A stretch of 63,902 nt of DNA, the filler included, from Nemertoderma westbladi (Eukaryota > Animalia > Xenacoelomorpha), in the NCBI GenBank assembly GCA_032718475.1. It is 4 parts of 4 records of this genome, joined end to end, with 100 filler letters (N's around TTAATTAATTAA, not from the genome) between each part and the next. Parts side by side here need not be neighbours in the genome. Positions count along the whole stretch, not along the records: positions 55,225 to 63,902 come from JAUCBJ010000543.1; 3 more parts are not named here. One strand, 5' to 3'. This document shows, one piece after another, positions 56,219-63,902 of this stretch. Both the position numbers and the translations under genes were made by a program. The number at the start of each line of letters is the position of its first letter. Position 1 is the first letter of the stretch. The notes beneath the pieces are model-generated. The model was not told the origin of the DNA. It was given only the letters and a program-made list of their open reading frames with translations, and ran no database searches.

Positions 56219-57130
56219 ATGGTTAGGCTAGCGATTAATCTTCTTGCTTTTATTGTTCCTGTTATACTTTCTGCTGGGTTTCTAACCCTTTTTGAGCGCA
56301 AGATCATTGGATTTTCACAATTTCGACTCGGTCCCAATATTATTGGGACCTTTGGGGTGCTTCAACCTATCTCGGATGCCCTGAAACTTATTTTTAAAGA
56401 ATATGTGGTAATTTCGAGGTCTATAGCTGTTTTTGGATTTATTGGGGCTTCATTTATTCCTATCTCAGTAGCTTTTGTTGTTTGGCTTGTTTTTTCATAT
56501 CCGCAATCTTGAGTGAATAGTGGGCTCTCTATTGTTGTTTTTTTTATTGTTTCCTCTCTTTCAATTTATGGGATTATGGGAGCGGGGTTTTTTTCCAATT
56601 CTAAATATTCGTTTATTGGGGGGCTTCGAGCTGTGGCTCAGTTTGTCTCTTATGAGGTAACAATAACAACTTTTGTTATTGTAGTAATTATTTTTGTAAC
56701 TTCTTATGATATTATAGAAGCTCAAACTCGGACAAGGGTGATTTTTTGTGGGTGTGTGGTGTGTATGTGCTGGTTTATTACAATTCTAGCAGAAACAGCA
56801 CGAGCCCCTTTTGATCTGGTTGAGGGGGAGTCTGAGCTTGTTTCAGGTTACAATGTTGAGTTTTCTGGGGCGATATTTACTTTTTTTTTTCTGGGGGAGT
56901 ATTGTATAATAATTATTATAGTAATTATTATTGTTAATATTTTTATTTTTTTCCAACATTGGGGGAGATATGTTTATTTTTTTCTTTGTATGTTTACATT
57001 TATATACATTCGGGCTTGTTACCCGCGGATTCGTTACGATCAAGTTATAGGAATAAATTGAAAATTTCTACTTCCTGTGGGAGTTGGGTTTCTTTCTTTT
57101 GTAGTTTTTTTTTTTTTTATTGTTTACTTA
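56219..57130 (+). CDS. nad1: NADH dehydrogenase subunit 1 (ends at first in-frame TTA)
   Basis: [49 protein letters not shown]=Trp; 303 aa. Confidence 0.95.
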
Positions 57131-57150
57131 GGGGATTGTTGGGTTTTGTT

Positions 57151-58731
57151 ATGTTTTTTTTTCAAAAAGTTCTTTCATTTAGAGCAAGTTTTGTTTGGCG
57201 GTTTGGTTCTTCTGTTGCTCATAAGGATATTGGATTTATATATTTTGTTTTTGGGGTATTTTCGGGTATTATAGGGTCAATAATGAGCTTTGCTTTCCGT
57301 GCAAGGCTTATGTATCAACAAGGAACAGGGGGGCAACATTTTAATGCTATAATTACACAGCACGGGATTCTTATGATTTTTTTTATAGCAATACCAATTC
57401 TTATTGGAGGGTTTGGGAATTTTATAATTCCTTGTGCTATGGGGGCAGTAGATATAGCTCTCCCGCGGCTGAATAATCTTAGATTTTGACTTCTACCTTT
57501 TGCTTGGCTTATGTTTTATGCTGGGGTTTTTAGGGATATTAGGTATGGGATTGGCTGAACTTTTTACCCTCCCCTTTCTGGGTCTATGGCAGAACATTCT
57601 GGGATGTCTGTTGATTTTTTTCTCTTTTCTCTTCATCTTGCAGGGGCAGCTAGAATTATAGGGGGAATTAATATAATAGTAACAATACTCAATCTGAAAC
57701 ATTCAGGTCAAACAATATTTCGGATAAATCTTTTTTGTTGGTCTGTTTATATTACATCTATTCTTCTAGTTCTTAGGATTCCAGTTGTGGCTGCGGTGAT
57801 TACAATACTTATTTTTGATCGAAATTTTGGCTCTTGTTTTTTTTTCTATGTGGGGGGTGGGGATTCTATCCTCTTTCAACATCTTTTTTGGTTTTTTGGG
57901 CACCCAGAAGTGTATATTATTGTCCTACCTGCTTTTGGAATTGTATCCCAAGCTGTTATAGTTTGCTCTCAGAAGTCTTCTTGTTTTGGGCACTCTGGGA
58001 TGATTTGTGCTATAGCTTCCATTGGGGTCATCGGGTTTCTAGTTTGGGCTCATCATATGTTTACGGTTGGGATGGATTTTGACTCTCGAGCTTATTTTTC
58101 TATTGCAACTATAGTTATTGCTGTTCCGACTGGGATTAAAGTTTTTAGTTGGGTTGCTACTTTCATGAGAAGAAAGGCGTATAATAATATTGTATTTTTT
58201 TGGGTTTGTGGGTTTATTGTTATATTTACTCTAGGAGGAGTTACCGGTATTGTGCTTTCAAGAGCGGCGATTGATATTGTTTTTCACGACAGGTATTTTG
58301 TTGTAGCTCATTTTCATTATGTTCTTTCTATGGGGGCTATTTTTGGTATTTTTCTTGGATTTTTTTGTTATTTTAGTATTTTTTTTGGAGTGGTTTTTTC
58401 AGATCGTCTTGCAAAAATTCAATTTTGAGTGTTTTTTTTTGGGGTTAATATACTTTTTTTCCCACAGCATTTTCTTGGGATAGCTGGGATGCCTCGACGG
58501 TATAATTTTGTTTATGAGCAATTTTATTTTTGGAATTTTATTTCAAGTTATGGGGCATTTATATCTATTTTTTCTGTTATTGTTCTTCTCACAATAGTAG
58601 TGGTTTGTGCGCTTTGAGAGCAAAACATCTGCTCAGAGGTTGATAGGTTTATAACAGAGTTTATTTACAGATTCCCAGTTCGTTTCCATTCAAATGTTGT
58701 TTCCATTTTTTCAACAAAAGCGATAAGGTTG
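57151..58731 (+). CDS. cox1: Cytochrome c oxidase subunit 1 (ends at TTG 58729-58731; first TAA is 58765-58767)
   Basis: HKDIG, GGFGN, PRLNN, WTFYPPL, HPEVY, WAHHM, AHFHYVL, GMPRRY. Confidence 0.97.
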
Positions 58732-58754
58732 TGTGTGATGGGGTTGTTTAAGTT

Positions 58755-58856
58755 TTGGTGATCCTAAGGTTTTGAAATATAGTTATTTCTTTTTTTATTA
58801 TAATTACGTTTTTTTATTTTTTTAGGTATTTTATTTCAATTAGATGGTTTTCATTG
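58755..58856 (+). CDS. Candidate atp8-like 33-aa hydrophobic ORF
   Basis: TTG/GTG start, (M)VILSFWNMVISFFIMITFFYFFSYFISISWFS, ends at TTG; fills the cox1-cox3 gap; no MPQL motif. Confidence 0.35.
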
Positions 58857-61769: not shown

Positions 61770-61788
61770 TTGTGGGAATTTTAATTTT

Positions 61789-63516
61789 ATGTATTTTATA
61801 AGTAATTTTTTTTTTTTTATTGTTGTTTTTATATACATTTTTTTTTCTTATAAAACGGGAAAGTATTATTTCATAGCTCCCATCATGTGTGTTTTTTTTA
61901 TTTCCAAGGCCATGAGTATTAGATTTTTTTTTAATTTTGCAGAAAATTGGGAGCTTCTGTATTGTTTTCATTTTTTTTTTTATCCTTATGAGAATTTTGT
62001 GATTTTTCGTTGTGACTACTTTTCTTCAATAATACAGCTAACCCTTTATATGGTTTCTTTTGGTATTGTGCTTTTTTGTTCATGATATATTGAGGACAGA
62101 GTTAATTTCATGTATTTTGTTATAGTAATTCTAGGGTTTGTTTGTACAATAGATTTTCTTGCAATTTCTACTAATATAATTTGCATGTATGTAGCTTGAG
62201 AGCTGCTTGGAGTAGTTTCTCTTGTGCTTATTAACCATTGAAAGTGTCGTCGGGATTCTTTTATTTCTTCTTTTATAGCGTTTTTTTATAATCGGATTGG
62301 GGATTTTGGTTTTTTTTTCTGTGTAATTATATATATAATTTTTATCGATGTTGGGGTGTTTTTTTTTGATGTAGTTTCGTTCAAGGTTTTTATAAATGTT
62401 TTTTTTTTTATAATTTTTTTTAGATGTTGTGTAAAATCGTCTCAGGTTTTTTTTTACCCATGGCTAAAGTTTGCTATAGAGGGCCCCACTCCAGTCTCAG
62501 CTCTTCTCCATTCTTCTACTATAGTGGTTGCTGGTGTTTTTGTGATATCAAGGGTGTCATTTAGATTTGTGGTGGGGTACTCAAATTTTATTAAAGGGCT
62601 TATTGTTGGGTTTGGGGTTATTACTTGTGCGTATGGGGGAGTAATGTCTTTTTATCAATTTGATATAAAAAAACTTGCTGCGTATTCAACTATAAGTCAT
62701 CTTGGGCTCATGTTTTTTGCCACTGCCCTTGGAAATGTAATTTTTGTATTCTTTCATATAGTTATTCATGCGTGCTGTAAGGCAGCTCTTTTTATATGTA
62801 TTGGGTGCATTCAGCATATAGCTGGAAGGCAGGACCTCCGACAAATTAAAGGGATTGGGTGGGTTATGCCCTATCTCTCTGCTATGTGTGGGGTGTGTAT
62901 GCTTGGGCTTTCAGGGGTTCCGATGGTTTTTATTTGGTGAAGAAAGCATCTAATTATAGACGCAATTAGACATTTTCTTTTTTTTAGTGCTTTTTTTTAT
63001 ATGCTCTTTTTTTTTTCTTGTTTTTTCTCTGTATTTTATTGCTTTAAGGCATTTTTTTTTATTTTTTACCCGACTGTAGGTGGGGTAAATAAATTTGTGG
63101 CCACAGGTCAGTTTTTTTATACTAGGGTAGTGTCTTGGGGGTTCCTACTAATTTTTTTTTGTTGTTATTTTACAAGAGTTGCATATTTTAATCATTTTTT
63201 TTTTATTGGGGGAGCTAATTGAGAGCTTTCAACTTTTAGCTGAGTTTGGGGAGCAGCCATGCTAATTTGGTTTTTTTTTATATTTGAGATTTTTTTTTTT
63301 GGAGTTCATGGCGCCTCTGGGTGGGTGTTTAGGTTTTTTTATAAAGCTCTCGTTTGGGTTGGGAATATTGAAATTTTTTGATTTTATTTTTTCAAGTATT
63401 TTTTTTGAGTTTTTAAGTTTAGCGAGGTATTCGGCTCACAAAAATTTGTTTATTTTAGGGTCAGGTTTTTTATGGTTATGGTTTTTTTTACAGTCGGGAT
63501 GGTGTTTCTTTATTAG
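61789..63516 (+). CDS. nad5: NADH dehydrogenase subunit 5 (TAG stop)
   Basis: WELLG, NRIGD, KSSQ...PWL..AMEGPTPVSALLHSSTMV, D.KK.AAYST.SH, H...KA.LF, QDLR; 575 aa. Confidence 0.95.
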
Positions 63517-63538
63517 AGACTGGGTTACATTGTAGGGT

Positions 63539-63902
63539 ATAAAAAAAATATTTTTTTGAAAATATACGTTTATTTCTTCTTTTTCTAAGGGACTTGTTGT
63601 AAGTTATTTTACCCCATCTAGAGTGTCGTATATGTGAAATTACGGGGTCTCTCTTGGGTTTATTTTTATGGTGCAGTTTGCAACTGGAGTGTTTCTATCT
63701 TGTCATTATGCGAGAAGTGATATTCTAGCGTTTAGTTCGGTTGTGTATATTTCACGAGATGTAAATTTTGGATGAATTCTACGGGATATTCACTCTAATG
63801 GGGCTTCTTTTTTTTTTTTTTGTATGTATGTTCATATAATACGCGGTCTGTATTTTGGTTCTTTTTTCAACATTTTTGTTTGGTACATTGGAATTCTTAT
63901 TT
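63539..63902 (+). CDS. cob: Cytochrome b, 5' part (ATA start; runs off the window)
   Basis: [35 protein letters not shown]...Y.H..RGLYFGS. Confidence 0.95.

Follow-up and report, generated by a model that had tools for sequence, protein, structure and literature searches.

UUA and UUG as probable stop codons, lost from the interior of genes, in a mitochondrial contig of the Nemertoderma westbladi assembly

What do the codons UUA and UUG (together UUR, or TTR in DNA, R being A or G) mean in the mitochondrion of Nemertoderma westbladi? The question is raised by the last contig (JAUCBJ010000543.1, positions 55,225-63,902) of the window, that is, of the whole stretch of 63,902 nucleotides (nt) analysed, in which four parts of assembly GCA_032718475.1 are joined. 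This mitochondrial contig is broken off within cob, and the genes seen are all on the + strand, in the order trnW, trnF, trnN, rrnS, nad1, cox1, a possible atp8, cox3, atp6, trnP, trnR, trnA, trnK, nad2, nad5 and cob. A preliminary description, made from the sequence alone, had proposed that UUR was lost as a leucine codon and now terminates translation. The loss is borne out in all seven identified protein genes; termination, which we infer, is the meaning that best fits the evidence set out below.

Codons were taken as internal if they lie between the proposed start and the first TTR or TAR (TAA or TAG), both excluded, in nad1, cox1, cox3, atp6, nad2, nad5 and the partial cob. TTA and TTG account for 0 of 2,383 such codons, where the preliminary description had found none in about 2,390, and leucine is encoded by CTN (N, any base) in 151 of 151 cases, as also claimed there. 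TTA, TTG, TAA and TAG are the only unused codons, all other 60 sense codons of translation table 5 of the National Center for Biotechnology Information (NCBI) being present in the seven genes; table 5, where TTA and TTG are leucine, does not describe these genes in this respect, as neither is ever internal here. T stands at 40% and C at 8% of four-fold degenerate sites, by which TTR is predicted to make up 71% of leucine codons; the probability of 0 in 151 is about 1e-82 under this bias, and 1e-27 at a flat one-third share. In the other two frames, counted over five genes (atp6 contributes only 3 codons, and cob is left out), 314 and 127 of 2,020 triplets are TTR, and 101 and 71 are TAR.

As a control, a metagenome scan kept 80 of 597 cox1 loci, 47-56% identical. 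All 45 loci with a GC content below 0.45 contain at least 21 TTR each, and the two of the 80 without TTR are both GC-rich (0.57 and 0.66), cox1 of the window having a GC content of 0.354. In-frame TGA is found in none of the 80, which are not table-5 genes and for this reason are probably not animal mitochondrial loci. Conserved columns were taken from COX1 (of 120 matches, the 87 that are named animal proteins, with 33 unnamed or metagenome rows removed) and from NAD5 (150 unnamed representatives). At the 49 columns conserved as leucine the window has CTN 26 times and TTR never, the remainder being Met, Ile, Phe, Val or Cys, and its COX1 is 6.7% leucine, lower than all 87 homologues (8.4-15.0%). 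UUR has been lost as an internal leucine codon in the seven visible genes. No trnL of any kind, and hence no trnL(UAA), is found among the seven intergenic transfer RNAs (tRNAs) of the 8.7 kb seen, the remaining mitogenome lying outside the window.

Five of the six complete genes have UUR at the expected 3' end, and in none does TTR occur before the homologous end. They are nad1 (56,219-57,130, ATG to TTA at 57,128-57,130; Pfam PF00146 positions 2-295 of 298; 302 internal codons, no TTR), cox1 (57,151-58,731, ATG to TTG at 58,729-58,731; PF00115), cox3 (58,844-59,665, from ATG at 58,844, or ATA at 58,874, to TTA at 59,663-59,665; PF00510 positions 4-257 of 258), atp6 (59,680-60,387, from a probable TTG start to TTA at 60,385-60,387; PF00119 positions 5-216 of 217) and nad2 (60,696-61,769, from a probable TTG start to TTG at 61,767-61,769), which had no match in the Pfam search and was recognised by ND2 chains of the Protein Data Bank (PDB; E 7e-8). 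The sixth, nad5 (61,789-63,516; PF00361; 574 internal codons, no TTR), runs from ATG to TAG at 63,514, and the 5' part of cob (63,539-63,902; PF00033; 120 internal codons, no TTR) is ended by the end of the window. The preliminary description had placed the five TTR ends at the same positions and had nad5 end on TAG, and had rightly noted that with TAA and TAG alone nad1 would overlap cox1 by 124 nt, cox3 would run into atp6, and atp6 would extend across trnP; the TAA then reached by atp6 is at 60,496.

The C termini defined in this way fit those of homologues in all five genes, as had been expected. For nad1, 318-residue PDB chains have 18 residues after the aligned end, where TTA gives 12 and the next TAG, 48 codons past TTA and within cox1, gives 60. 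In COX1, the distance from the last conserved His to the end is 9-13 residues in 77 of the 87 named animal proteins and at least 22 in 5 of them; TTG leaves 13 residues, and TAA, 12 codons on, leaves 25. With each of 23 PDB sequences the cox3 alignment leaves 0-3 residues of the chain uncovered at its end, and Gly270 is followed by 3 residues up to TTA and 19 up to TAG. Homologues of atp6 have 1 residue after the aligned end, where TTA gives 7 and TAA 44, residue 228 aligning with residue 225 of 226 in PDB chains; for nad2 they have 21, the same as given by TTG, TAA giving 26. The tails from the first TTR to the next TAA or TAG contain 22 TTR in 113 codons (19%), against 0 in 2,383 internal codons (Fisher p 3e-31), so that they are not ordinary coding sequence. 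Homologue fit and tail composition together place the true ends at or just before TTR.

These sequences have been recovered repeatedly. Five sequencing runs from three studies, under one species label, contain the mitochondrial stretch, compared over 55,225-59,900, and none of them is listed as RNA; one, X1, may be its source, and a contig of X1 extends a further 1,945 nt upstream of 55,225. DNA runs of two samples and a complementary DNA (cDNA) run of a third match the window in long contigs; for X1 and X2, both DNA, the main contigs show 0 other letters at a depth of about 2,900-4,600. The run of the third sample, X4, is listed as 'DNA?' and behaves as cDNA, by its template-switch adapter and by its gene-wise depth: 800-4,200 over rrnS, 60 over nad1, about 300 over cox1 and 0 over trnW and trnF, the latter arguing against a DNA background. 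The adapter joins at 55,431, one base past the end of trnN. X4 also contains cox1 contigs of other organisms. Its mitochondrial contigs show 0 other letters over 56,181-57,092, 57,132-58,417 and 59,310-59,900, so that CUN is not edited to UUR in the covered parts; editing of CUN or of the cox3 UUA was not seen in these cDNA contigs.

An artefact, be it assembly error, a nuclear copy, contamination from a non-animal source or an ordinary code restored by RNA editing, would find some room in the fact that the window joins unrelated contigs, and in a quick COX1 tree where the window sequence has an end branch of 3.62 and belongs to no supported clade. A 99% split in the same tree sets it with the bilaterians (52 rows, with 32 named matches and 19 of the 80 metagenome loci, and without xenacoelomorphs, flatworms or nematodes). 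Seven intact frames, the depth and uniformity of X1 and X2, the cDNA contigs free of other letters, the species label shared by three studies, TGA and ATA read as tryptophan and methionine, and compact genes punctuated by tRNAs all speak against an artefact, which is very improbable and, for 55,225-59,900, largely refuted. Compact genes, short tRNAs and ribosomal RNA (rRNA) and the COX1 grouping identify the contig as part of the mitogenome, high in copy number, of a very long-branch bilaterian animal. Mitochondrial and nuclear contigs likely come from one animal, given the common species label of the runs. Identity does not exceed 58% among the 120 full-length COX1 matches listed, 61% among the 120 shorter ones listed, and 36% among the 150 NAD5 matches listed; no relative of cox3 was found in viral contigs. 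GenBank mitochondrial data for Nemertoderma are called contamination in PMC5431833, and mitochondrial contigs, where PMC10565955 deals with them, were removed without description.

Directly 3' of the cox3 TTA stands a non-coding run of T (59,666-59,673, + strand), of 8 T in the window, 9 T in X2 (depth 4,001) and X3 (depth 752), which stem from one sample, and 10 T in X4. Runs of 8 to 10 T within coding sequence show no gap, six of them being bridged by the listed contigs of X2 and seven by those of X4; an additional T, at 58,358, occurs in a single minor contig of X4. If UUA were read through, cox3 would gain a tail of 16 codons in the 8-T form, 278 in the 9-T form and 37 in the 10-T form. 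The 278 codons include all of atp6, through which the 9-T form stays in frame without TAA or TAG, so that read-through would produce a Cox3-Atp6 fusion; tails of such unequal length disfavour UUA as leucine. An X4 contig (59,310-59,900, depth 31.7) spans the cox3 TTA into atp6 with 0 other letters. Termination is the single meaning that best covers the five gene ends, the T-run variation and this cDNA contig, and that UUR terminates by whatever mechanism appears to us highly probable.

Two observations concern slippage. The 14-T run at the end of nad1 (57,105-57,131) has TTA within 0-3 codons whether the run is read at equal length, one T shorter or one T longer, and slippage there would still meet UUA. 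A frameshift leading to a canonical stop was rejected as a general route, since a +1 or -1 slip works in one gene of five (nad1).

A number of points weigh against termination. The window does not reach cox2, nad3, nad4, nad4L, nad6, rrnL, the greater part of cob and some 15 tRNAs, and the listed COX1 and NAD5 matches offer no near relative for a conservation test. A sub-threshold fold resembling trnL(UAA) lies inside atp6 (60,012-60,081, score 97.1); codon-shuffled genes give 7.5 such tRNA calls per shuffle, 0.17 of them Leu(UAA or CAA), and this fold, being at chance level, was discarded. Out of frame, TTR is so frequent that one would turn up a few codons past any true end. The terminal position of TTR therefore does not by itself show a stop function, and the argument of the preliminary description from the first in-frame TTR, sound as to the C termini, is weaker than it looks. 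In the window haplotype, four of the five genes have canonical or polyadenylation-completable stops 3-12 codons downstream of TTR: three codons on in atp6 (if trnP starts at 60,395), five in nad2, five in cox3 (8-T form only) and 12 in cox1. Two of these had escaped the preliminary description, namely the nad2 TAA at 61,782, which causes no overlap with nad5, and the in-frame UAA that polyadenylation at the trnP boundary could give to atp6. Moreover, every TTR starts with T, and cleavage after that T followed by poly(A) would create UAA. The run comparison covers trnW to the 5' part of atp6, and of the five TTR ends that of cox3 alone is bridged by an X4 contig. Contigs alone were compared, with side branches dropped and 62 loose ends hidden, in which single transcripts and mature 3' ends are not resolvable.

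The downstream stops are what would be expected if UUR were a poorly read leucine codon, tolerated only in C-terminal tails, with proteins ending at the next UAA or UAG or at poly(A)-completed stops. We regard this as quite improbable: nad1 would gain 48 residues, with 12 TTR inside cox1; cox3 would lose its stop in the 9-T and 10-T forms, and be fused to atp6 in the former; and a TTR content of 19% in the tails would stand against 0% in the genes.

Alternatively, UUR might be unassigned and never enter the ribosomal A site, messenger RNAs (mRNAs) being cut at T or TA at or just before TTR and completed to UAA by poly(A). Animal mitochondria routinely use incomplete stops (PMC5431833), the initial T of every TTR would suit such cuts, and the excess of TTR over TAR in both other frames would often make TTR the first to follow a true end. 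Five cuts away from the starts of tRNAs or of the next genes would be needed, including one that lies 9 nt before trnP, and the cDNA contig is unbroken across the cox3 TTA with no listed poly(A) end there, although contigs can drop such ends. Nine cuts at the 5' end of the next gene, followed by poly(A), were tested; each still leaves at least one TTR to be read in frame, and none yields UAA for nad1 or for cox3 in its 9-T and 10-T forms. That tRNA punctuation operates is indicated by the X4 5' end exactly at the trnN-rrnS boundary; the atp6 mRNA should then end at trnP and keep its in-frame UUA, against a merely unassigned codon. The explanation by cleavage is, on balance, unlikely.

That UUR is read as a stop by an altered mitochondrial release factor is the probable explanation, and the one that we prefer. 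In the route that we propose, tRNA-Leu(UAA) would have been lost and internal UUR purged to CUN or to Met, Ile, Phe or Val codons, which would agree with the low leucine content of COX1. The nuclear-encoded release factor mtRF1a, relaxed at the second codon position, would then read UUR beside UAG; UUR codons in dispensable C-terminal tails would become new stops, older stops might persist as relics 3-12 codons downstream in atp6, nad2, cox3 and cox1, and UUG would still start atp6 and nad2. The gene for mtRF1a is not among the open reading frames of at least 120 amino acids in the window. All sequence data would be fitted equally well if UUR had neither tRNA nor release factor, and a rescue factor of the ICT1/mL62 or mtRF-R type, acting whatever the codon, relieved the stalled ribosome and freed the protein, so that UUR would end translation undecoded. 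The vertebrate AGA and AGG were at one time proposed to work in this way (PMC4169044), and the atp6 UUA, 6-7 nt from the predicted mRNA end, would suit it. Rescue of the ArfB/ICT1 type works near mRNA 3' ends (PMC4814080), and the cox3 UUA stands in RNA that continues into atp6; vertebrate AGA and AGG were later attributed to a release factor (PMC12574857), and stalling at five of six complete genes would presumably be costly. We consider rescue improbable.

UUG probably has a second function, to judge from the alignments at the N termini. Residue 64 of atp6 aligns to residue 67 of 226-residue PDB chains, which sets the protein start at about 59,680; 59,680-59,682 is TTG, with TTA just before, and ATT is found further upstream in frame only in the 8-T form. 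Residue 7 of nad2 aligns to residue 2 of one PDB chain, the TTG at 60,696-60,698 sits 4 nt past trnK, and the first 18 codons contain no ATN. UUG thus probably initiates both genes, TTG being the apparent start of atp6 and nad2 and the apparent stop of cox1 and nad2. Start codons are read in the P site and stop codons in the A site, so that the two uses are compatible.

The other codons were examined at conserved columns. TGA falls on tryptophan in 4 of 4 cases and AAA on lysine in 4 of 6; ATA falls on methionine in 9 of 20 and on leucine in 7, and fills 9 of the 22 methionine columns. TGA, ATA and AAA thus fit Trp, Met and Lys, as in table 5, the background assumed in the preliminary description. 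Its further assumption that AGR is serine is weakly supported by these columns, which are Ser in 4 of 12 cases, Gly in 3 of 12 and others in 5 of 12. AGA or AGG at 57,304, 57,541, 58,168, 58,261 and 58,291 coincides with COX1 columns conserved as Glu, Gly, Gly, Asn and Thr, respectively.

The remaining features of the contig, all on the + strand, are mostly tRNAs identified by ARAGORN in mitochondrial mode (-mt). Calls at the default threshold are trnF(GAA) (55,288-55,352, score 103.7), trnN(GUU) (55,372-55,430, 101.1) and trnR(UCG) (60,484-60,551, called as 60,484-60,544, 102.5); sub-threshold calls are the intergenic trnW(UCA) at the start of the contig (55,225-55,283, 96.5), whose anticodon fits TGA as tryptophan, and trnA(UGC) (60,552-60,612, 97.6). 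For trnP(UGG) (60,394-60,467, 101.7; fold z -2.66) the 5' end is 60,394 by ARAGORN, or 60,395 by the C1:G72 identity rule. The last, trnK(UUU) (60,623-60,691, 106.4), matches Rfam RF00005 at 40.4 bits and is the only match of the Rfam scans; a bacterial-mode ARAGORN scan gave no tRNA. The small rRNA gene rrnS (55,431-56,180, 3' end approximate) has the cDNA 5' adapter joined at its first base, directly after trnN, and no match in the Rfam scan; the motif of its terminal helix was recognised. The 38 nt of 56,181-56,218 separate rrnS from the nad1 ATG, and an X4 cDNA contig starts at 56,181 with 23 unaligned letters, which suggests an unusually long 5' leader of the nad1 mRNA. Between cox1 and cox3, a TTR-free hydrophobic frame of 32 codons with TTG at either end (58,755-58,856) is a possible, unproven atp8, with no Pfam match. 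No hairpin common to the gene junctions was found in a fold scan.

The contigs before 55,125 are animal nuclear DNA, with long interspersed nuclear elements, DNA transposons, a Cys-loop channel and NASP. Artificial linkers at 17,928, 39,547 and 55,125 consist of two N-runs flanking a 12-base spacer, and contigs across them are not neighbours. The Cys-loop ligand-gated ion channel (4,142-5,488, + strand; PF02931) and the histone chaperone NASP (22,283-23,635, - strand), for which a relative search gave no close match, are uninterrupted frames, intronless there. Broken frames at 9,758-14,796, with a weak match to DNA polymerase B (organellar/viral; PF03175, E 3.5e-4), are followed by a 306-residue frame without Pfam match and resemble a decayed Polinton-like element. 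Transposon pieces (29,133-31,876, 41,583-42,254, 44,520-45,167 and 50,600-51,013) comprise reverse transcriptases (PF00078), a tyrosine-recombinase fragment (PF00589), DUF4371 and a DDE_Tnp_4 endonuclease. A tandem repeat of about 45 nt at 19,503-20,162 has repetitive open frames on both strands and no Pfam match.

Among 27 NCBI tables (as held in Biopython), TTA is a stop in table 23 alone and TTG in none, so that no animal table has a UUR stop, as had been claimed. Table 23 (Thraustochytrium/Labyrinthulea) resembles the present case, as do peDinoflagellate plastids, in that UUA terminates (PMC12574857); there UUG is leucine and UGA a stop, while here UUG is affected too, never being internal, and UGA is internal at tryptophan columns. 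The UUA stop of the table 23 type is attributed to an RF2-type factor (PMC12574857). Closer are the mitochondria of Marsupiomonadales and of Pseudoscourfieldia marina (Pycnococcus provasolii), where UUR is a stop, with a modified mtRF1a and no cognate tRNA (PMC12574857); the precedents named in the preliminary description, Thraustochytrium and Pycnococcus, were correct and left out the Marsupiomonadales. As in these green algae, UUA and UUG are never internal and occur only where coding sequences end, beside canonical stops that are still used. In contrast to them, the host is a bilaterian, the background is that of table 5 (AGR likely serine, not alanine) and the strand is T-rich and C-poor; the GC-driven codon loss considered in PMC12574857 cannot, given this composition, explain the animal case. 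Loss of the cognate tRNA and an altered mtRF1a are documented in the algae and predicted here.

With table 5 itself the contig shares TGA as tryptophan, ATA as methionine, AAA as lysine, AGR probably as serine, and TTG as a permitted start. The vertebrate mitochondrial AGA and AGG stops are likewise a sense-to-stop change in animal mitochondria, and the only animal case of this kind named in section 16 of PMC12574857, according to which they are read by the paralogue mtRF1. They differ in the codons concerned, in their occurrence in 2 human genes (PMC9810596) against five of six complete genes here, and in the need of a duplicated factor. An animal UUR-stop code was not found in full-text searches of open-access papers, subscription journals being largely uncovered and an earlier description possible; the one 'TTA stop' that came up, in PMC11969816, is an incomplete stop and not a reassignment. 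UUR as a stop is thus known from algae and apparently new for animals.

We lean towards the fuller proposal of a new animal code, in which table 5 is modified by UUA and UUG serving as the chief stops, read through a remodelled mtRF1a. It would have arisen against a T-rich bias, would use UUG as both start and stop, even within nad2, and would represent the second animal sense-to-stop reassignment after vertebrate AGR and the third independent origin of UUR as a stop. Most variation among animal mitochondrial codes concerns AGR, AUA, AAA and UAA (NCBI tables), and in no NCBI animal table have two of the commonest sense codons passed to termination. Simple codon capture by GC pressure fails here, because the mutation bias of the strand favours UUR, and routes by tRNA loss or by an ambiguous intermediate become testable. 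The algal cases predict the sites of alteration in mtRF1a, which would allow a test of convergence across kingdoms and may hint at the way in which release factors recognise the second base of a codon. Annotation of this lineage with table 5 would give wrong, overlapping or fused proteins, and the code, where shared, would serve as a strong marker in the phylogeny of an unplaced group of long-branch animals.

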